DNA of 64,000 nucleotides from Candidatus Latescibacterota bacterium (GTDB lineage Bacteria > Latescibacterota > UBA2968 > GCA-2709665): positions 5,376,001 to 5,440,000 of the forward strand of contig OZ241917.1 of assembly GCA_965203805.1 (NCBI GenBank), in the 5' to 3' direction. Positions 3,028 to 49,559 of the stretch are shown here, in pieces. How positions within the stretch are numbered: position 1 is the stretch's first letter; each line of letters opens with the position of its first letter. The notes beneath the pieces were generated by a model. That model saw nothing but the letters and a program-made list of their open reading frames with translations. It was not told the DNA's origin and did no database searches. The translations under genes and the position numbers were made by a program.

Positions 3028-3172
3028 TTTGAAGGTGGGGCCTGCCTGCCAAAGCGTCACCGGCAGGCGCAGGCAGGCAGACATTCCTGTCTGCCGACAT
3101 CGATGTTTTGCTGTTGATGAAGAGACATAATGGAAGACCACTGCGCCATCACTCCCCCCTTGAGGGGAGTCG
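3028..3172 (+). repeat. composite ~140-bp direct repeat, copy 1 (GTGG-tagged GCAGACATTCCTGTCTGC REP carrying a CCTGCCTG hairpin insert)
   Basis: aligns with 3890-4033 and 4541-4664. Confidence 0.85.
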
Positions 3173-3889: not shown

Positions 3890-4033
3890 TTTGAGGGTGG
3901 GGCCTGCCTGCCAAAGCGTCACCGGCAGGCGCAGGCAGGCAGACATTCCTGTCTGCCCACATCGAGTTCTTGCTGTCGATAAAGAGACACCAGGAAAGAC
4001 CGCCGCGTCATCACTCCCCCCGTTAGGGGAGTC
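3890..4033 (+). repeat. composite direct repeat, copy 2
   Basis: close match to 3028-3172. Confidence 0.85.
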
Positions 4034-4540: not shown

Positions 4541-4664
4541 TTTGAAGGTGGGGCCTGCCTGCCTGCCAAAGCGTCACTGGCAGGCGCAGGCAGGCAGACA
4601 TTCCTGTCTGCCGACAACGATGTTTTATTGTCGATGCAGAGACATTAGGATAGACCGCGGCGCC
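4541..4664 (+). repeat. composite direct repeat, copy 3
   Basis: match to copies 1 and 2; carries the complete 41-bp hairpin insert at 4554-4594. Confidence 0.85.
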
Positions 4665-4851: not shown

Positions 4852-5352
4852 TCACCCTTGCCCTCTCCCAGTGGGAGAGGGATTGATTGCGTCTGCGATT
4901 TCGTTCAGGGCTTCCAGGGTTTGCAGCAGCATGTGTTTGTTTCTGATACGGACGACGGTCAGCCCGAGAGAATCCAGAAAAGCGTCGCGGTTTCTGTCCG
5001 TCGTGCGGCGCTCATCGGACTCGTGGACCGGTCCATCTAGTTCCACGACGAGCCGTTTCTCGTGGCAGTAGAAGTCGACGATATAATGGCCGATCTGATG
5101 TTGCCGTCGGAATTTGAGACTAAGGAACCGGCGGTCCCTGAACAGTTCCCACGCAAAGTCTTCCGCGGGAGTCGGCCTCTGCCGCATCTCCCGTGCCCGT
5201 TCCAGCAGAGCGGTAAATTCCCACCCGCCTCGGTAATGGCCCTGCTCCTGTCCTTCTAGTTGAGCGTGTTGCGACGCTCGTTGATGGGCTTCGCCGCCCG
5301 TCCCCTTGGATTCGGCTTTCGTCGAGGACTTTCCGAGCCTGCCCTTCGCCAT
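4852..5352 (-). CDS. DUF559 (Vsr-like) endonuclease domain protein, copy 1, fused to a duplicated hsdM start
   Basis: AREMRQRPTPAE..W..FR.R.F..LKFRRQHQIG.YIVDFYC.EKRLVVELDGPVH; N-terminus MAKGR matches hsdM. Confidence 0.85.
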   Translation of the reverse strand: MAKGRLGKSSTKAESKGTGGEAHQRASQHAQLEGQEQGHYRGGWEFTALLERAREMRQRPTPAEDFAWELFRDRRFLSLKFRRQHQIGHYIVDFYCHEKRLVVELDGPVHESDERRTTDRNRDAFLDSLGLTVVRIRNKHMLLQTLEALNEIADAINPSPTGRGQG

Positions 5353-7076: not shown

Positions 7077-7610
7077 TCACCCTTGCCCTCTCCCAGTGGG
7101 AGAGGGATTGATTGCGTCTGCGATTTCGCTCAGGGCTTCCAGGGTGTGCAGCAGCATGTGTTTGTTTCTAATTCGGACGACGGTCAACCCGAGAGATTTC
7201 AGAAATGCGTCGCGATTTCTGTCCGTCGTGCGGCGCTCATCGGACTCGTGGACCGGTCCATCCAGTTCCACGACGAGCCGTTTCTCGTGGCAGTGGAAGT
7301 CAACGATATAGTTACCGATCTGATGCTGGCGACGGAACTTGAGGCCAAGGAACCGTCGGTCCCTGAACAGTTCCCACACAAAGTCTTCCGCGGGAGTCGG
7401 CCTCTGCCGCATCTCCCGTGCCCGTTCCAGCAACCCGTAAAGTTTCTCCCCGCCTCCGAATTGACCCGCTTCCTCCGTTGCGGATTGGTGCGAAGCTTGT
7501 TGGTGGCTGCTAATGCCGGTCCCCTCCGCCACCGAACGACCCTCTCCCTCTGCGAGAGTATGGCGCGAAACTTCCTTCTGAGCATCGCTTCGGTTCACCT
7601 GTCCCCACAT
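7077..7610 (-). CDS. DUF559 endonuclease domain protein, copy 2
   Basis: core nearly identical to copy 1; flanked by inverted REPs at 7074-7106 and 7616-7659. Confidence 0.85.
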   Translation of the reverse strand: MWGQVNRSDAQKEVSRHTLAEGEGRSVAEGTGISSHQQASHQSATEEAGQFGGGEKLYGLLERAREMRQRPTPAEDFVWELFRDRRFLGLKFRRQHQIGNYIVDFHCHEKRLVVELDGPVHESDERRTTDRNRDAFLKSLGLTVVRIRNKHMLLHTLEALSEIADAINPSPTGRGQG

Positions 7611-8021: not shown

Positions 8022-11000
8022 TCACGCCACCGCCCATCCCTCCGACAGCGCCTCCGCCTGTTCGATCACCGTCTGCGTGGCCTTTTCCTGCTTGTCTGGA
8101 GGATAGCCGTGCCTGCGCAGGATGCGCTTGACAAGGCGCCGCAGGTTTGCGCGGACGTTCTCGCGCAACGTCCAGTCGATGGTGACATTGTTGCGGACCG
8201 TTTCGACGAGTTGGCGGGCGATGTCGCGGAGCGTGTCGTCACCGAGCACCTGCACCGCGCTGTCGTTCGTTTCCAGTGCATCGTAGAAGGCCAGTTCCTC
8301 CTCCGAAAGCCCCAGCCGTTCGCCCCGTTCGTTCGCCTCCCGCATCTCTTTCGCCAGTTCGATCAGTTCCTCGATGACCTGCGCCGCCTCGATCGCGCGG
8401 TTCTGATACCGCCTCAGGGTCTGCTCCAGCATTTCGGCAAACGAACGGGCCTGCACGACGTTCTTGCGCCGCCTTGTGGAAACCTCGCCCTTCAGCAGCT
8501 TCTGCAGGAGTTCGATGGCCAGGTTGCGGCGCTCCATGCCGCGGACCTCGGCCAGGAACTCGTCCGACAACACCGAAATGTCGGGCTTTTCGAGGCCGGC
8601 CGCGGCGAAGATATCCATCACGCCCTCCGAGGCGACGGCGCTGGAGACGATCTGACGCACGGCAAGGTCCAACTCCTCCTGGGTATGTTTCTCGTCAGTC
8701 GTTCGCTTGGACAGGGCCGAACGGACGGCCTGGAAAAACGCCACGTCGTCCCGGATGCGCCGCGACTCCGGATGAGGCACGGCCAGCGCGTAGGCCTGGG
8801 ACAGCGCCCGCACCGCGTTCAGCCACCGGTCCTTGCCGTCTACCTGGGCCAGGACGTGTTCCTGGGCGGCAGGAAGCAGATTCAATCGCTCCGCCGGCGT
8901 GCCGTCGGTCCACGCGGCCCAATCGAACCCGTGCAACAGGCCGCAGCAGACCTCGTATTTCTCCTGCATCACCGCAACCGCTTCTCTCTGGTCCACGGCC
9001 GTATCGCCTGTGCCGCCGCTCTCGGTATACGTAGCCAATGCATGTTTCAGGTCCTGGGCGAGTCCCAGATAGTCCACGACGAGCCCGCCGGGCTTGTCCT
9101 TGAACACGCGATTCACCCTGGCGATGGCCTGCATCAGTCCATGGCCGCGCATCGGTTTGTCCACGTACATCGTGTGCAGGCTGGGCGCGTCGAACCCCGT
9201 CAGCCACATGTCCCGGACCAGCACAACCCGAAGGGGATCGCCGGCGTCTCTGAACCGGTTCGCAAGAGCCTCCCTGCGTGGCTTATTTCGGATGTGCTGC
9301 TGCCATTCGGGCGGATCGGATGCGGAACCGGTCATTACGACCTTGATCGATCCCCCTTCGTCAGCGTCACTATGCCAACCGGGACGCAGTCGGACCAGTT
9401 CGCGGTAGAGGTCGATGCAGATGCGGCGGCTCATGCAGACGACCATCGCCTTTCCGTCCAGCGCTTCGAGGCGCTGCTGGAAGTGGTTGACGATGTCCGA
9501 GGCGATCTGCTTGATCCGATTTTCTGCGCCGACGACCGCCTCTAACTGCGCCCACTTCGTCTTGAGCTTCTCCCGCCGCTCCACCTCTTCGCCCTCGGTG
9601 GCTTCCTCGAAATCGGGGTCGATCTTCGGCTTTTCGCGCTCGTCGAGGGACAGTTTCGCGAGGCGGCTTTCGTAGTAGATGGGCACCGTGGCCCCGTCCT
9701 GAACGGCGCGCCGGATGTCGTAGATGCTGATATAGTCGCCGAAGACAGCCCGCGTATTGGCGTCCTGAAGTTCTATCGGTGTCCCGGTGAAGCCGACGAA
9801 GGAGGCGTTGGGCAGGGCGTCTCGCATATGTCGCGCAAACCCGTCGATGAAGTCGTACTGGCTTCGGTGGGCCTCGTCGGCGATCACTACGATGTTGCGC
9901 CTGTCCGACAATTCAGGATGGCTGTCGCCCTTCTCTTCGGGGAAGAATTTCTGGATGGTGGTAAAGACCACACCCCCGGCGTTCACCGACAGCTTGTTCC
10001 TCAAGTCAGCCCGGCTCTCCGCCTGCGTTGGCGGCTGGCGCAACAGGTCCTGGCACCGCGAGAACGTGCCGTAGAGCTGGTCGTCCAGGTCGTTCCGGTC
10101 GGTAAGCACCACAACGGTTGGATTTTCCATTGCCGGTTCGCTGATGATGGCGCCGGTATAGAAAGCCATCGTCAGGCTCTTCCCCGACCCCTGCGTATGC
10201 CATACGACGCCGACGCGCCGGTCGCCGGGCTCTCCGCCGGGTTTCTGCCCCGTCTCGTACCTTCCACCGGTGTCCACGGATCGGTCAACTTTGCGGTGTA
10301 ACTCCGCTGCGCGAAGCGTTTCGTCAACCGCGTACCTCACCGCGTGGAACTGGTGATAACCCGCCATTTTCTTTTCCAGCGCGCCGCTGCCGTCGTCGTC
10401 GAAGACGATGAAGTCGCGTACGAGCGCAAGGAAACGGTTCTGTTCGAAGACGCCTTCCAGCATCACCTGAAGCTCGGCCAGGTGCTGGTCGGCCAGCGTC
10501 TCCCCGGCAACCGTGCGCCATGGCTTGAACCACTCCTTGCCCGAGGTCAGCGTGCCGATTCGGGCTTCCGTCCCGTCCGAGACCACGAGCATTTCATTCA
10601 TGGAGAACAGTGCGGGCAGTTCGGTCTTGTACGTCTGTAGCTGGTTCCAGGCCGTCCAGATTGTGGCGTCCTCGTCGGCCGGATTCTTCAGTTCGATGAT
10701 TCCGAGTGGCAGACCGTTGACAAACAGCACGATATCCGGCCTGCGGTTGTTGCTGTTTTCCGTGACAGTGAACTGATTGACCGCCAGCCAGTCGTTCCTG
10801 TCGGGTCTTGCGAAGTCAATGACGCGAACTTGGTCGCCGCGCACGTTTCCGCTGGAATCTCGATATTCGACGTTGACGCCGTTTACGAGCATCCGGTGAA
10901 ACGAACGGTTTCTTGCTTCCAGGGTCGATCCTTCGGGACGGGTCAGCATGCGGCACGCGTCGTCCAGGGCGGACAGGGGCAGGGAGGGGTTCAATTCAGC

Positions 11001-11165
11001 GAGGACGTCGCGAAGCCTGTGCTCCAGAACCACCTGTCGGTAGTCATCGCGCTCTGCGTCAGGCGTCTCCGGCGCGATATCCGGTCCGTGCAAAACCTGC
11101 CATCCGAGACCGGAGAGCCAGTCAAGAGCCGCCTGCTCGACGTCCGCTTCGGTGAGGGTGGTCAT
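8022..11165 (-). CDS. hsdR: Type I restriction enzyme R subunit
   Basis: [21 protein letters not shown] nuclease motif, [35 protein letters not shown]3387-like tail; start MTTLTEAD at 11165. Confidence 0.95.
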
Positions 11166-11581
11166 GGGGGTTCCCAGGGGTTGACAATACGGACGTTCAA
11201 GTTGTCGAAGTCCCTCACGTTGCGAGTGACGACCGCCATATCGTTGGCCATCGCGGTTCCAGCTATGAGCGCGTCGCCAAGTCCCAACTCGCCGCCGCTC
11301 CGATGTACGCGCGCCTGCAGTACAGCAGCCCACTCGGCTTCCCGCCTCCCAATCGGCGATATGCGCCCTTCAAAGTCCGCCAGGAGCAGAGACAGCCATC
11401 TTCTTAAACTGTCACGGCGTCGGCCGTCCGGGAGGAGTTGCAAACCCAGTTCAAGTTCTTTGACGACGATAGCCGGAAGCCACAGATCATCCCCGGCGTT
11501 AAGATAGTCAATGACGGCTTGGTTCGGATTCTCCTTCGTCAGCTCCGAGACCACGTTCGTATCCAGGAGAAAACCGCTCAT
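11162..11581 (-). CDS. vapC: PIN-domain (VapC) toxin
   Basis: [11 protein letters not shown]...ELELG...DALIAGTA...VVTRNVRDF. Confidence 0.9.
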
Positions 11582-15720: not shown

Positions 15721-17139
15721 TCAGTTCGATTGAACTTCGATATCTCCCGACACCAGCTTCGGCAGTAGCGCATCACGCTGGGCGGTGAGGGCGAGTGATT
15801 CCTTGCGGTTGAACTCCATCTGAGCAAACAAAGGGCTAACCAATATGCTGAACTCATTCCAGGTTTCTGCGGGTGGGTTGGGAAGAGTGTAGGGAGCTAA
15901 TGCGTCACCCTGGACGCGTTGCCGTCCCGATGTACCTGTCATGCTCTGAATCGCGTGTTCCCGGAACGCCATTTCACGGGCCAAGAGGTATGTGTACTCA
16001 GGTGGAACAGGTGGAATGGCCCGTAACACAATGAATTCTGTCGATCCCCAACCCACAGTGTCATCTGACAACAATTGGACGAAAGCGGTCTTGCCGTTTT
16101 CCAAACAGGGCGTTATGCGTGCAAACAAAGTATCTCCGTCGCGAAAGCGCGTACCGGACTTAAACTCTCGCAACACCGGAGTGCTTGGACTAGACCCAAA
16201 CGTCGGAAGGGATGCCATATCAAGGTATGGTGCCACGGTCCCCCGCTTCATTGGCTCTGTGGGATTCAACTCCACCACCTCCCCCAATGCCTTAACCTCC
16301 CACCCCTCCGGTATCTCGCCCAATTCCGAGTCGACAAAGTGATTGGGAAACAGCGCCGCGATGGACGGATCCATTTTGTCGAGATACGCGTGCGCCCGCT
16401 TCACAGTCCATCCCGGTGACCCTTTGCCGTCAGTTACCCCTTGGGCGGGAATCGTGCCGTGATGAGCGTCCGATCCCGAGCCAGCGTGTTTTCGGAGCGT
16501 GGCTTTGGCGTGGACAGGATCGAAGTCGACGAACCAGGACTTGAAGAGCGTCCGCGCCAACTCCTCCAGCGTTTCGTTCATCCGCCGGTTCAACTCAATT
16601 TTGTTGTCCAACGTGCCCAGTACATGGGCGATTTCCCTTTGCTCCCGTAGGGGAGGGATGGAGATTTCCAGAGACTCAATCATCCCTTTCGTGAGGGCAT
16701 TTCGAGTGCCCCCTGAACCTGCCCAAGACAGTAGTAGGGTCTGCATTTCCGGAGACACGAGGCAGTAGCGCAGATACCCCGCATCGAGATTGACTGAGTC
16801 CGGCCGGATGATCGCCACATGTTGATTGACGCGCGCAGGCAGCACGTCTGGCACAACCTGACACACCCTGGCGACCGAATCGCCCGTGATGTTGAGCAGT
16901 ACGTCGTTCTCGAAGACCTCCACGTTTCGTAACTCATCGGCATGATGTTCACCGATAAACGCCAAACCATCGCGATGGAAGCCATCGTTGTACACGTTCT
17001 GGCTGCGTATCAAGCTATAGGGACCGTCTTGCAGGTAGACATCCTTCCCGCCACGTGGCGTCGCACCGCTGCCAATCTTGGCACATACATCACCGAGCAG
17101 GACCTCCCGCCACTTGCTCTGAGGGTCCGTGTTATCCAT
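15721..17139 (-). CDS. hsdS: Type I restriction enzyme S subunit
   Basis: KIGSGATP, PPLREQREIAHVLGTLDNKIELNRRMNETLE, SELGEIPEGW, RDALLPKLVSG; alternative start 17190. Confidence 0.93.
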   Translation of the reverse strand: MDNTDPQSKWREVLLGDVCAKIGSGATPRGGKDVYLQDGPYSLIRSQNVYNDGFHRDGLAFIGEHHADELRNVEVFENDVLLNITGDSVARVCQVVPDVLPARVNQHVAIIRPDSVNLDAGYLRYCLVSPEMQTLLLSWAGSGGTRNALTKGMIESLEISIPPLREQREIAHVLGTLDNKIELNRRMNETLEELARTLFKSWFVDFDPVHAKATLRKHAGSGSDAHHGTIPAQGVTDGKGSPGWTVKRAHAYLDKMDPSIAALFPNHFVDSELGEIPEGWEVKALGEVVELNPTEPMKRGTVAPYLDMASLPTFGSSPSTPVLREFKSGTRFRDGDTLFARITPCLENGKTAFVQLLSDDTVGWGSTEFIVLRAIPPVPPEYTYLLAREMAFREHAIQSMTGTSGRQRVQGDALAPYTLPNPPAETWNEFSILVSPLFAQMEFNRKESLALTAQRDALLPKLVSGDIEVQSN

Positions 17140-17195
17140 GCTCACTCCACCTTGCAGAACCCTGTAGTCTTGCGTAGCCACAATCGCCATTCCCC

Positions 17196-18671: not shown

Positions 18672-18897
18672 TTATCCAAATCCAAGCTGCTTCAGGTTCG
18701 CCTCAATCGCAGCATCCAGCTTCGCGGCTTCGGCCTGCTGTTCGCGCCACTGCTTCGCGAGACGGGCCATCTTCTCCTCAAAGGGTTCGCCATCGTCTTC
18801 CTGCGGTTCCGCGCCGACGTAGCGGCCGGGCGCGAGGACATGGCCGTGTTTGCGTATCTCTTCGAGCGATGCGCTTTTGCAGAAGCCGGGTATGTCG
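18672..18897 (-). pseudogene. duplicated hsdM C-terminal fragment without the GIY-YIG insert
   Basis: [50 protein letters not shown]... matches the hsdM tail. Confidence 0.9.
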
Positions 18898-19118
18898 CGG
18901 CAAACCGCGACGCCCTGGCCCTCACCCGGCGCGATAGGCTGGCGCGTAGCACGTTGCTGCCCCTCACTTCTGTTCCCCTGTCCCACAATCATACCCTCTC
19001 CCCTTGGGAGAGGGTGACGCGCAGCGCCGGGTGAGGGTGCTTCGCCCCCCCTCGGGTGACGCGCGGCGCCGGGTGAGGGCGTCTTTGATTCTACAGCTTT
19101 GCGCCCTCATTCTGGATC

Positions 19119-19643
19119 TCACCCGGAGGGAGAGGGGTTTACTGCGTCTGCGATTTCGTTCAGGGCTTCCAGGGTGTGCAGCAGCATGTGTTTGTTTCTA
19201 ATTCGGACAACGGTCAATCCCAGAGATTTCAGAAATGCGTCGCGGTTTCTGTCCGTCGTGCGGCGCTCATCGGAGTCGTGGACCGGTCCATCCAATTCCA
19301 CGACCAGCCGTTTCTCGCGGCAGTAAAAGTCAACGATGTAGTTGCCGATCTGATGTTGGCGCCGGAACTTGAGGCCGAGGAACCGTCGGTCCCTGAACAG
19401 TTCCCACGCGAAATCTTCCGCGGGAGTCGGCTTCTGCCGCATTTCCCGTGCCCGATCCAGCAGCCGGAAAAACTCCGGACCACCCCTGTAATGACCCTGC
19501 TCTTCAGGTAGTGCGTGTTGCGCAGCTTGTTGATGGCTGCCACCACCGGTCGCCTTGTCCACCGAACTACCCCCTCCCCTTACGACAGAATCGCGCGCAT
19601 CTTCTTGCAGCACATCGCATTGGTTCCCCTGTCCGACAATCAT
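19119..19643 (-). CDS. DUF559 endonuclease domain protein, copy 3
   Basis: same core as copies 1 and 2; REP-flanked. Confidence 0.85.
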   Translation of the reverse strand: MIVGQGNQCDVLQEDARDSVVRGGGSSVDKATGGGSHQQAAQHALPEEQGHYRGGPEFFRLLDRAREMRQKPTPAEDFAWELFRDRRFLGLKFRRQHQIGNYIVDFYCREKRLVVELDGPVHDSDERRTTDRNRDAFLKSLGLTVVRIRNKHMLLHTLEALNEIADAVNPSPSG

Positions 19644-19960: not shown

Positions 19961-21700
19961 TCACGCCTCGAATGGCCGATATTCCACCAATGCCGACCGT
20001 CCTACAATCTCCACGATCCGCACGGTTATCTCGACGCCATTGACATCGGTGAGCCGCAAGTCTTCGCCAAGCACGAAATGCACCGGCTGCTGTTGGCCCT
20101 GGTTGATGGCGATGTTCGAGGCGTAGAGATATGTCCGGTCAAGGTTGTCTCGAATCGGATTCAGCGATCCTTTCAGCCCAGGAATTCGGCCGCGGTCTTC
20201 GGAAAGAATGACGCCGCCGCCACCGGGAAGCGGATCGAGTTCGATGGTGAGCGTTCCTTCCGACGGTATCCAGTCGCGTTCGCAGTGTGCGGCAAAACCG
20301 TGAACAGCGGCGAATACGGTCATTGGCAGATCAACCGTATGCAGGCCAATCATGGCCTGGCCCAACGCGTCTGTTGTGGCCTGTTTCCACGTCTTGTTCG
20401 GGAACAGCACCAGTACCTCTGCCTTAGCAAGCGGCTGGTCGCCAACACACACATTAATCAGCACGCGGGCCGGACTCGGCTCGGTGGAGGCCGCCGGTAG
20501 GGTGACGCGAAGGTCAGCGCCCCCAACCAGATCAAACTGCGGCAGACGCCCGGCGAGTTCCCGGGTTTCTCTGCGAATGACGGGGACGCCGTCACCACGC
20601 CGTTCCATGATGAAAAGTCGCCCGCCCGCCCCCTGGATCCCACTGGTTGGCATCCGGCCGAAGACCGAGGCAAGGACCTCGTTACGGGTTGCCTGGCGAA
20701 ATTCCAACTCTTCAACGGTGAGACTATTGGCGAGTGCGCCGGGTGACTGGATTTCCACGCGGTCGGCAAACATGGACAGGCGAATCCGGCTGCCGTGCAT
20801 CGAATAATCGCGGTGCGCCACGGCATTGGCGATAGCCTCGAAAAGGGCTTCTGCGCTGTATTGTGGCAAATCCATGCGTGCCGGGTCCTTGTAGGCTCCA
20901 ACGCGCATATTGCGCACGGCAAAGGCGACCGCTTCGGCAATTTGCCGGTTGAGGGGGCCGGTAATTGTCTGAGTGTCGAGTTGGCCGGAGGCTCGATCCG
21001 TGCCTCGATAATGGGTGGCCGTAATGCAGGCGTTGGGCAGCCATTCTTCCGGTGTGTGGCAGCAAAAGAGGAGGCCGGCGACAGTCGCTCGCACGGTTTC
21101 GTGTTCATCGAGTCCGACGAGACCCATTTTTTCCAATGCGGTCTCGGGATCGGCCCTGCCTTCCGCGCTCAACAACGGTCTCCACAGGGCTTCGTCCAGC
21201 GTTCCCAAACCGGTGTTGGGCACCGGCTGCTTATCGAACCAAAGAAACCGCGCTTGTCCCCTGCGTTGCGCCAAGCGCAGCCGCTCATCGCTTGTCATGC
21301 GGCGTTTAGATCCGCCTACCCGAACATAGCTGCCGCCTGGACTATCATGCTGCGATTCGCTTTGAGGAACTTCGACCAGAAGAAAACTCTTTCCCACCAG
21401 TTCTCTGTGATAGGTGGTGATGCGAACGGCAGGTCCGATCGCGTCAGTGCTGACCTCGACCAGAAAAGAGTCCAACTCGACGATCTGTTTGCGTGACATG
21501 CCCTGAATTTCGCCTGTGTCGGTCACGCCACACAGGAGTGCGCCGCCGGCAGTGTTGGCAAATGCGGCGATCTCGTCGGCCCAATCATCGCGGCTGGGAC
21601 TCCTCGGTCGATCGCCCGAAAACTCGATCTGCTTAAATTCCCACTGGCTGTCCTCGCCCAGACGAAGTTGACGTTTGATATCATCGTCAGTGTAGGTCAT
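19961..21700 (-). CDS. AlbA_2 (Schlafen-like) DNA-binding domain plus HATPase_c_4 protein
   Basis: [50 protein letters not shown]; unusual beta-rich C-terminus. Confidence 0.8.
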
Positions 21701-23568
21701 CGATCGTCTCCAAAGCCAAGCTTTCTCAGATTCTTCTCAATAGCCGCATCCAGCTTAGCGGCTTCGGCCTGCTGTTCGCGCCACTGCTTCGCGAGACGGG
21801 CCATCTTTTCCTCAAAGGGTTCGCCGCCTGCCTGCCGAGCCCGTCCTTCAGCAATAATCCTCTTCAGCCAACGCCGTCCTGCCGAGGTTTTTAGCTCCCG
21901 CTCACGCGCCACGGCTTCCGCACGGCTCTTGAATTCTTCATAGTGAGGGATGTATCGGGGTCGGTTTTTCTTGGTCCAGTCTGCGGCCCTTCCGGCTACA
22001 TGCTCTTTCCATCGCCGGGGTATGTTGTCTGTATGACCAACGTAAAGGCTTCCACCCTCGCAGGAAATAACGTATACGAAAAACAATCCGGGACTCGGCG
22101 CAGGCAGGTCGTCCGGCTGCGGTTCCGCGCCGACGTACCGGCCGGGCGTGAGGACGTGACCGTGTTTACGTATCTCTTCGAGCGATGCGCTTTTGCAAAA
22201 GCCCGGAACATCGTCGTATCCCTCTCCGTTGCGCCATGCGTGGTAGGTGTCCGCGACCTTGGCGATGTCTTCCGGCGAGAGGTCCCTGTGCGTCCGGTCG
22301 ACCAGATGGCCCAGCTTTCGGGCGTCGATGAAGAGGGTTTCGCCATTGCGAACCCTCGCCCCTCTCCCGGGTGAGGGTGCCCGCGACAGAAACCACAGAC
22401 ACGCGGGGATCTGCGTCGACCGGAAGAGCTGGCCGGGCAGGGCGACGATGCAGTCCACGAGGTTGGCCTCGATGATATTCTTTCGGATCTCCCCCTCGTT
22501 CGACTGGTTGGACGACATGGAGCCGTTGGCCAACACGAAGCCTGCGGTGCCGCGCGGCGCGAGGTGATAGAGGAAATGCTGCACCCAGGCGAAGTTGGCA
22601 TTGCCGACAGGCGGGACGCCAAATTCCCACCGCCTGTCCTCGCGCAGCCTGTCGCCGCCCCAGTCCGACACGTTGAAGGGCGGATTGGCGAGGATGTAGT
22701 CGGCCTTTATGTCCGGATGCCGGTCGTTGTGGAAGCTGTCCCCGTGCTCGATTCGGCCGTCGATGCCCCGAATCGCCAGGTTCATCCTTGCCATTCGCCA
22801 CGTGGTGTAGTTGGACTCCTGTCCGTAGATAGAGATATCGCCCCTTCCTCCGCCTGCTGCGTTGCCGTTTCCGGAGGTATGGGCGTCAATGAACGCCATT
22901 GACTGCACGAACATCCCGGAGGAGCCGCAACACGGGTCGTAGACCCGCCCCTTGTAGGGCTCCAGCATCTCAACAAGCAGACGCACCACGGAACGCGGGG
23001 TATAGAATTCACCGCCTTTCCGGCCCTCAGCCAGTGCGAATTGCTCCAGGAAGTACTCGTACACACTGCCGAGCACGTCCGTCGCCCGGGCTTCTGCCCC
23101 GCCCACGTCAATGTTGGTAACCAGGTCCACCACCTGCCCCAGGCGAGTCTTGTCAAGGTTGGGGCGAGCGTAGTCCTTTGGCAAAACGTCCTTGAGCGCG
23201 GGATTGTCCCGCTCAATGGCGGCCATTGCATCGTCAACCGCACGTCCAATGGTGGGCTGGCGCGCCTGAGACTGCAGATTCTTCCAACGCGCTTCCGGCG
23301 GCACCCAGAAGATGCTCTGGGCGCGGTACTCGTCAGGATCTTCCGGATCCGCGCCTTCAGCGATTTCTTCCACGAGCCTGGCATGGGCTTCCTCGAACGC
23401 GTCCGAGATGTACTTGAGGAAGATGAGGCCCAGAACGACGTGTTTGTACTCCGCAGCGTCCATGCTGCCACGCAACGCGTCGGCCATTGCCCAGAGCCTG
23501 GATCTGAAATCCGTACTGGCACCGGTATCGGCATCCGTCCTGGTCTTTTTTCGTCGACCCTTCGCCAT
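21697..23568 (-). CDS. hsdM: Type I RM methyltransferase with an in-frame GIY-YIG domain insertion
   Basis: [37 protein letters not shown]; insert [25 protein letters not shown]. Confidence 0.95.
21827..22108 (-). mobile_element. 282-bp inverted-repeat-bounded GIY-YIG mini-element inserted in frame in hsdM
   Basis: ends cctgcctgccgag (21827-21839) and ctcggcgcaggcagg (22094-22108); precise removal restores EPQPDDGEPF, as in the empty copy near 18781-18810. Confidence 0.8.
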
Positions 23569-49496: not shown

Positions 49497-49559
49497 CCTG
49501 CCTGCCGAGCAGGTCTCGGCCTGTCTGCCGTTCCAACGGGACAGGCAGGCGCAGGCAGG
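49497..49559 (+). mobile_element. non-autonomous CCTGCCTG hairpin (33 bp) with a nested 30-bp relative, inserted in a REP
   Basis: cctgcctgccgag-caggt-ctcgg[cctgtctgccgttccaacgggacaggcagg]cgcaggcagg; outer ends identical to the GIY-YIG element ends. Confidence 0.75.

Follow-up and report, generated by a model that had tools for sequence, protein, structure and literature searches.

An inverted-repeat-bounded GIY-YIG nuclease cassette in frame in hsdM and its candidate mobile relatives

The insert in hsdM and its empty counterparts

Within a stretch of 64,000 nucleotides from a Candidatus Latescibacterota genome (contig OZ241917.1, positions 5,376,001 to 5,440,000; called the window here), the Type I methylase gene hsdM contains a short insert that encodes a GIY-YIG nuclease domain and ends in inverted repeats. 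The gene (21697..23568, minus strand) encodes a protein of 623 amino acids, and its reading frame is uninterrupted by the insert. The product has the features of a Type I methylase, namely HsdM_N and N6_Mtase domains and a C-terminal helix. According to Pfam, N6_Mtase spans residues 162-485 and GIY-YIG spans 497-562 (E 8e-13), and the C-terminal helix, at residues 585-616, is seen in a low-confidence model only. The nuclease domain is positioned between the catalytic domain of HsdM and this helix.

The insert, referred to below as the cassette, occupies 21827..22108 on the minus strand, and its 282 nt provide 94 stop-free codons in the hsdM frame. It splits a host GAC codon after the second base, has neither a start codon nor a stop codon of its own, and carries GIY-YIG as its sole Pfam domain. 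A first-pass annotation of the window had proposed an in-frame insert of this kind and length, and the reading frame, the Pfam match and alignment to an insert-free copy all bear this out. The edges proposed for it coincide exactly with perfect 9/9 inverted repeats, CCTGCCTGC and GCAGGCAGG (21827-21835 and 22100-22108), and an inner inverted arm, GCCGAG/CTCGGC, follows directly inside them. The 5′ end (element positions 1-20; 22089..22108, minus strand) reads CCTGCCTGCGCCGAGTCCCG and encodes LPAPSP; its inverted partner at the 3′ end (element positions 266-282; 21827..21843, minus strand) reads CGGGCTCGGCAGGCAGG and encodes (G)RARQAG. In single-strand folding, an interrupted terminal stem of 17 bp joins the two ends in both the minimum-energy and the centroid structures. 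The fold energy of the whole cassette is no better than that of shuffled sequences (z 0.23), and only the terminal stem of this fold is meaningful.

The same annotation described junctions without target duplication, a lack of start and stop codons and ends unlike those of an intein, and each of these points holds. The boundary is ambiguous by 1 nt, with a C present on both sides. In a comparison of 45 loci the first C is invariant in 44/45 and the base after the last GG varies; because of this conservation pattern the first C is assigned to the element and the base after GG to the split host codon, which on sequence grounds resolves the boundary to 21827-22108 and the element to CCTGCC...GGCAGG. 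The translated cassette starts with LPAP and finishes with RQAG (GRARQAG), with a host Gly next, and does not have the N-terminal Cys/Ser/Thr, the C-terminal His-Asn and the +1 nucleophile that characterize inteins. Similar ends recur among representatives of the wider family, with an LPAP start in 98/149 and an RQAG end in 87/149. Of the hallmarks of classical insertion sequences (IS) and miniature inverted-repeat transposable elements, the cassette has the terminal inverted repeats; it has no target duplication and no transposase of a known family.

The nuclease domain matches PF01541 with 48.9 bits against a curated cut-off of 22.6. An AlphaFold2 model of the module has a GIY-YIG fold with a predicted local distance difference test (pLDDT) score of 90.5, falling to about 50 in the last ten residues, and its strands (E9-16, E21-26 and E50-59) and helices make up a three-stranded sheet with flanking helices. 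In a model of the whole HsdM protein (mean pLDDT 55.9) the GIY-YIG part reaches about 80, between low-confidence linkers. Residues Y12, Y22, G24, R32, H36 and E69 are invariant in 39 sequences, and the conserved Tyr, Tyr, Arg and Glu are what we take to be the hallmark residues of GIY-YIG enzymes. The predicted fold matches 1zg2, Slx1 and UvrC-N, and the closest solved relatives, with a Foldseek probability of 1.00 by fold, are the UPF0213 proteins BH0048 (1zg2, E 2.5e-17 by sequence) and EF2693 (1ywl, E 3.3e-16 by sequence), together with the Slx1 nuclease domain. All of these share the GIY-YIG fold of the cassette, but the UPF0213 proteins are stand-alone cellular proteins and Slx1 has a RING domain, whereas the cassette is embedded in its host. 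On these similarities the cassette, which is a GIY-YIG nuclease domain alone, is assigned to the Slx1/UPF0213-like branch.

An empty form of the insertion site had also been predicted nearby. That part of the prediction stands, since an insert-free hsdM 3′ end aligns with the occupied gene on both flanks: 83/90 nt for 22206-22117 against 18890-18801, and 107/119 nt for 21825-21707 against 18791-18673. Between the aligned flanks there are only 9 nt, GAAGACGAT (EDD) against CCGGACGAC (PDD). What had been described as a bare hsdM tail is instead a remnant of a second hsdM, in which a DUF559 cassette and the hsdM 3′ end make one frame (18672..19643, minus strand, with a stop at 19119-19121). A tblastn search with HsdM of the relative G001 maps the remnant to 19526..18675, and its unoccupied GIY-YIG site is GAT|GGC at about 18792/18793.

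Evidence separate from the window's own genome is provided by metagenomes, for which presence and absence rest on assembled contigs of four runs. In run X5, contig record 26 (1195 nt) matches 21068-21825, which comprises a neighbouring gene and the end of hsdM, with 10 differences, continues for 9 nt, and then matches 22117-22542 with 31 differences. Because coverage skips from 21825 to 22117 over 9 nt, this contig represents the orthologous locus minus a net 282 nt, and it is an hsdM orthologue of the empty-site kind that the first-pass annotation had proposed as a check, lacking exactly 282 nt. Its differences are unequally distributed, with 31/426 nt on the side of the hsdM body and 10/758 on the other, and the 9 nt adjacent to the site differ too; in sequence terms this asymmetry is compatible with arrival of the cassette by recombination with a diverged donor. 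The filled form is present in contigs of three runs from two studies, and one of these, record 20 of run X4 (from a different study), covers 21809-22189. A short empty joint in X4 (21816 to 22108) is weak, with 48 nt on one side. Joints from 21825 to 22117 in X1 and X3 also had 48 nt on one side; they were not counted and probably derive from the window's own remnant at 18.7 kb.

A family of cassettes with conserved ends

Within the family assigned in the GTDB, one other genome, G001 (Candidatus Latescibacterota, locus L036), carries the cassette, at the same hsdM site and with 84% amino acid identity. In a sample of the phylum the distribution is patchy, with the cassette in 2/151 genomes at E <= 1e-20. 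More distant relatives were identified by several types of search. A word-based search for longer proteins gave 39 matches that are mostly HsdM, among them one DUF1156 methylase, one HsdS, and one HsdM whose usual site is empty and which has the module elsewhere. When one genome per species was scanned, 74 loci were recovered in many phyla, including lineages of the candidate phyla radiation (CPR), and a metagenome scan recovered 302 relatives, of which 80 were kept; one scan of viral contigs gave no relative of the cassette. An exhaustive profile search of 1.84 billion representatives returned 149 clusters at E <= 1e-30, rising to 4936 at the looser cut-off of E <= 1e-10. The module is embedded, with at least 15 host amino acids on both sides, in 136 of the 149 representatives, and a near-length search for close stand-alone forms gave four matches, all of them truncated hsdM ends.

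The ends travel with the domain. When 154 loci were searched for both terminal 9-mers at a spacing of 240-330 nt, 111 end pairs were located in 102 loci, and 85 of the 111 are exactly 282 nt long. The element's length is a multiple of three, a property that had been suggested as a check on coding copies, and 102 intact in-frame elements occur in 101 loci. These elements group into 37 clusters of flanking sequence, which represent distinct insertion sites in many unrelated genes. The first-pass annotation had looked to such sites for the same termini; the domain is not confined to hsdM, and its termini are kept even at synonymous positions.

Many of the hosts are components of restriction systems. 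By Pfam, HsdM proteins are interrupted at three positions and HsdR proteins at four or more; HsdS proteins are also hosts, as are SNF2/NOV_C helicases and DUF1156 methylases. In CPR lineages the hosts are a cobalamin adenosyltransferase (Cob_adeno_trans), an AMP-binding enzyme, a RibD_C protein (locus L065), a radical SAM enzyme and a PAPS reductase (PAPS_reduct). A tally of 103 of the 149 representatives, those of at least 230 amino acids within the size limit, assigned 71 to Methylase_S, three to DUF1156, and two each to N6_Mtase, HSDR_N and trigger factor; single-case hosts include TatD, QueC, SelR (MsrB), TrmD, arginyl-tRNA synthetase, SET and pseudouridine synthase. The hsdR gene of the window (8022..11333, minus strand) has an unoccupied site, CAC|GGG at 8931/8932, which is the position that holds the cassette in L057-L059 and L062. 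Two GIY-YIG modules are present in one HsdS (L063, from a metagenome-assembled genome of Zetaproteobacteria; also P0047), where Pfam detects two stretches.

Conservation of the ends is apparent at the level of DNA. Terminal nucleotides are kept in 44-45 of 45 loci per position, synonymous positions included, across loci with G + C contents from 0.36 to 0.67, and the near-invariant stretch comprises the terminal 13-15 nt. Codon usage was analyzed in 39 cassettes with less than 90% nucleotide identity to each other (mean 63%). The first four codons are CTG CCT GCG CCG in 97-100% of them, and codons 89-93 are CGG GCG CGG CAG GCA in 76-97%; for invariant Gly, Thr, Arg, Pro and Ala residues of the interior, which have four- or six-fold codons, the commonest codon is used only 0.3-0.5 of the time. 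Synonymous sites in the interior are near saturation, and for many pairs the synonymous substitution rate (dS) is not computable. Between the window and G001 cassettes dS is 1.14 and the ratio of nonsynonymous to synonymous rates (dN/dS) is 0.09; the median dN/dS over 145 pairs of cassettes is 0.17. These values indicate that the nuclease protein is under purifying selection.

Furthermore, the two ends co-vary in the alignment. Across the terminal stem 90% of cells are paired, compared with 32-42% when the structure is shifted along the alignment, and at six pairs both partners change. For example, 31 rows have C-G at pair 14-272 and seven have A-T, and the right-hand change is silent. The co-variation score was reached by 0/500 shuffles, with the caveat on this statistic that the sequences are related.

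The insertion sites have a short pattern in common. With one representative taken per site cluster (n=37), G is found at position -2 (27/37), A at -1 (27/37), C at +1 (25/37), G at +2 (27/37), G at +3 (20/37) and C at +4 (21/37), giving the consensus GA^CGGC, without duplication. Element positions 10-13 read GCCG, the complement of the right flank CGGC; as speculation, this could let the target and the element end pair.

Hairpins without a gene have the same ends. In this genome the terminal 9-mer is found 279 times on one strand and 270 times on the other, compared with 48 expected, and 137 hairpins contain both 9-mers no more than 60 nt apart; before nested pairs were merged, 65/151 pairs measured exactly 33 nt. 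Some of them consist of the two ends of the cassette fused together, such as CCTGCCTGCGCCGAGTCC|TGCTCGGCAGGCAGG. Those in the window, with no strand assigned, are two of 37 nt at 3041..3077 and 3903..3939, one of 41 nt at 4554..4594, and a composite of 63 nt at 49497..49559. The hairpins are depleted from long open frames (69/137, compared with 1726/2000 random sites), and the mini hairpins have no phase preference (tally 30/19/20). Among genomes of the GTDB family, hairpin counts are 103 in G021, 101 in G011, 95 in G000, 83 in G001, 63 in G018 and 30 in G006, with 0-17 in all others; a reversed-pattern control gave 0 across all of them. In the phylum sample hairpins occur in 23/151 genomes and are numerous only in this family, and 4/5 distant cassette-bearing genomes have 1-7 of them, with 0 for the control pattern. 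From the shared ends, we propose that the gene-less hairpins of 20-63 nt are internally deleted relatives of the cassette that resemble repetitive extragenic palindromic (REP) sequences. An in-frame mini hairpin of 42 nt, LPAGKAGAGGRQAG, is present in hsdM of G001 (L036, about 1740-1781); its left 9-mer is that of the cassette and its right end is degenerate. The window hsdM has no counterpart of it.

Proposed movement of the cassette and other explanations

The idea of a minimal mobile GIY-YIG element read as a fusion with its host, as the first-pass annotation put it, finds support in comparative evidence: the 37 sites, the conservation of the ends at synonymous positions, and the empty locus in X5. 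We consider the insert to be one copy of a widespread family of selfish, inverted-repeat-bounded nuclease cassettes of ~282 bp, translated as an internal domain of the host, with a probability of about 0.72. That the cassettes constitute a mobile family whose ends function at the DNA level appears highly probable, and the odds that the cassette's own nuclease acts on those ends are roughly even. The role of the nuclease as driver of movement, its mode of action and the production of the fusion protein are inferred.

In this reading, imperfect terminal inverted repeats, CCTGCCTGCGCCG(C/A)G ... C(G/T)CGGCAGGCAGG, bound a bare GIY-YIG domain, and the 3n length, together with a position between the second and third bases of a codon, lets the host frame survive and would add an internal domain to the host protein. 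As the likely mechanism, the ends would pair as a cruciform or as a single-strand panhandle, and the structure-specific nuclease of the element would cut at the foot of the stem. Excision, or insertion at GA^CGGC-like sites, would then be completed without duplication by repair or ligation functions of the host. After entering a gene family, the cassette would spread mainly by accompanying the gene or by recombining into empty sites of homologues.

Several observations weigh against this reading. This genome contains a single gene-bearing DNA copy and no other close GIY-YIG. In a quick tree (85 rows, 93 columns, weak support), cassettes cluster by insertion site, with 28 label changes against a minimum of 25 and a shuffled mean of 49.9, such that jumps to new sites may be rare and much of the spread may follow host genes. 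The GA^CGGC pattern could partly reflect selection for Asp-Gly loops that tolerate an insert. The cassette is found in only 2/6 hairpin-rich genomes (G000 and G001), and neither G021, with 103 hairpins, nor G018, with 63, has a match to the cassette profile; the persistence of hairpins without a cassette counts against a strict link between driver and progeny. In addition, GIY-YIG enzymes hydrolyse DNA and form no covalent intermediate, and therefore strand joining would need host functions.

A stronger form of the proposal is a new class of prokaryotic transposable element, the smallest autonomous one at 282 bp, in which a bare GIY-YIG hydrolase would act as a transposase that recognizes the stem of its own ends, is made only inside a host protein, and leaves REP-like hairpins as progeny. 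We regard this as tentative, at somewhat less than even odds. If the nuclease does move the element, GIY-YIG would join the short list of bacterial transposase chemistries, autonomous mobile elements would have a new lower size limit, and there would be a natural route by which a whole enzyme domain enters unrelated, even essential, proteins in frame.

The most durable of the other explanations is that the cassette spreads by homing only, in which the nuclease would cut unoccupied homologous sites and recombinational repair would copy the cassette into them, with no transposition via its own ends. GIY-YIG homing endonucleases of the I-TevI type, and inteins, are selfish nuclease genes within host genes, with presence/absence polymorphism at one site. 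The tracking of insertion sites by cassette lineages fits such a process, and the tree pattern points to frequent travel with, or into, homologous genes: in the same quick tree, an alternative hsdM site (L116) is nested within the main HsdM clade, and the cassettes L125 and L137 fall apart from the other 32 at the HsdM site, which seems to have been occupied by two cassette lineages. The distribution of differences in X5 (31/426 compared with 10/758, plus the 9 nt) likewise resembles a co-conversion tract. Homing endonucleases, however, combine nuclease and DNA-binding modules, in an intron or intein or as free-standing proteins, whereas the cassette is a catalytic domain of 94 amino acids with no DNA-binding domain, intron or splicing residues, and it has conserved inverted-repeat termini. 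Those near-invariant termini, which co-vary and are kept at synonymous positions, would be left unexplained, since homing enzymes recognize the empty target and not their own ends according to the available text of PMC1564403. The 37 unrelated sites have in common only the GA^CGGC-like core, and gene-less hairpins with the same ends exist. Homing as the whole explanation is therefore judged unlikely, and the selfish cassette with functional ends is preferred.

Alternatively, the mobile unit might be the hairpin, a REP-like repeat mobilized by a different enzyme (a RAYT-like Y1 transposase, for instance), with the GIY-YIG open reading frame (ORF) riding in its loop. REP sequences and bacterial interspersed mosaic elements with their REP-associated tyrosine transposases (RAYT, Y1), and the IS200/IS605 elements, pair hairpin repeats with one gene-bearing copy and have no target duplication and a short asymmetric target, as in the cassette. 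Their enzyme is an HUH tyrosine transposase, whereas the cassette encodes a GIY-YIG hydrolase whose gene lies in the hairpin loop and in frame in hosts. Four hairpin-rich genomes without a cassette (G021, G018, G011 and G006) are in keeping with a passenger role, as are a RAYT-like ORF of this genome with a hairpin just past its stop (genome position 4534124) and RAYT-like ORFs in several hairpin-rich relatives. Yet the arrangement typical of RAYT, a Y1 gene flanked by its own hairpins, is seen at only 1/9 RAYT-like loci; G012 has a RAYT-like ORF but 0 hairpins, and G003 has 31 Y1_Tnp matches and 0 hairpins, such that there is no correspondence between strong Y1_Tnp matches and hairpin numbers. 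In more than 10 phyla, moreover, it is invariably this nuclease, itself subject to purifying selection, that lies between the unchanged termini. On this balance a passenger nuclease is quite improbable.

The RAYT-like frame of this genome (HUH, 'PNHVHVL') has 203 codons and lies at C1:4533812-4534156, and its stop codon is immediately followed by one 33-nt CCTGCCTGC-family hairpin; orthologues of the frame in seven relatives have no such hairpin nearby.

A further suggestion is domestication: having lost its mobility at this site, the module in hsdM would now work for the restriction complex, perhaps by contributing an extra nuclease. The intact hsdM, the enrichment of hosts for Type I subunits and other DNA-handling defence proteins, and the similar divergence of cassette (84% amino acid identity) and flanks (78-81%) at the same site in G001 are all in line with this. 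The same cassette is found, however, in trigger factor, arginyl-tRNA synthetase, TrmD, MsrB, QueC and other enzymes, the locus has alleles without the insert, and even the hsdM copy retains the DNA sequence of the ends; domestication is considered very unlikely. A chance inverted repeat or an assembly artefact, for which nothing was found in favour, can be set aside as next to impossible given the filled form in contigs of three runs and two studies and termini kept in 44-45/45 loci.

Related systems and neighbouring cassettes

In full-text literature searches no description of an inverted-repeat-bounded, in-frame GIY-YIG element was found, in agreement with the statement in the first-pass annotation that no bacterial IS family of this architecture is known, and two reports provide partial precedents (PMC1564403 and PMC11893778). 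In the first, as far as its available text goes, Dunin-Horkawicz, Feder and Bujnicki (2006) described a GIY-YIG domain inserted at about residue 800 of the HsdR protein MCA0838, remarked on the domain's 'ability to invade new loci', and placed this case in the 'Slx1 cluster', with which the nearest solved relatives of the cassette agree (PMC1564403). The HsdR class L062, with its insert after residue 804, is probably the same case. In the text available, the MCA0838 report is of a single instance, without termini, a nucleotide-level element, other hosts or hairpin relatives (PMC1564403).

The second precedent is the work of Chenal et al. (2025) on stand-alone Ssn GIY-YIG nucleases that act on single-stranded DNA and are flanked by NTS/SRM hairpins. 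In the accessible parts of this paper the authors liken NTS-ssnA-NTS to an insertion sequence, their survey covers single-domain proteins of similar size, and the words 'in-frame', 'fusion' and 'inserted' are absent (PMC11893778). On that account of the Ssn system, both cases tie a small GIY-YIG nuclease to a multi-copy hairpin repeat dispersed through the genome. Ssn genes, however, stand alone with a whole hairpin on each flank, whereas the gene of the cassette splits a single hairpin, lacks start and stop codons, and would be translated as part of its host protein; the repeats also differ in sequence (CCTGCCTGC... in the cassette, ATTCCC..GGGAAT in Ssn). Of the features that define the Ssn family, the cassette shows the multi-copy hairpin in the same genome that is related to the gene's flanks (137 hairpins), and it is not a stand-alone gene. 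A comparison can also be made with the Rickettsia palindromic elements (Ogata 2000, 2002), presented in the available text of PMC10969869 as palindromic selfish DNA that lies in frame in unrelated genes and is translated. They resemble the cassette in both respects, but encode no enzyme, whereas the cassette is a complete, conserved nuclease domain.

There are practical aspects to these findings. The fixed ends of 13-15 nt mark a nuclease with a predictable DNA substrate, the same property on which interest in Ssn enzymes as tools for single-stranded DNA rests. Annotators who meet a 'GIY-YIG fusion' architecture in a restriction subunit should not take it for a functional design.

A second type of nuclease cassette is present in these genes. 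In hsdM of G001 a DUF559 (Vsr-like) domain is carried in frame (residues 428-573 of the L036 ORF), flanked by CCCTCTCCC..GGGAGAGGG hairpin repeats that are translated as PSPG..RHPLP.GEG. Three DUF559 ORFs of the window have the same flanking repeat (19643..19119, 5352..4852 and 7610..7077, all on the minus strand). At the position of the G001 DUF559 domain, at about 22353-22385 (minus strand), the window hsdM has a shortened form of this repeat, CACCCTCACCCGG|GAGAGGG, translated as APSPGRG, which may be the scar of a lost DUF559 cassette. The Type I operon of the window also includes hsdS (15721-17190) and hsdR (8022-11333), and a gene within it for a protein of 579 amino acids with SLFN_AlbA_2 and HATPase_c_4 domains (19961-21700, minus strand) lies between hsdM and the hsdM remnant.

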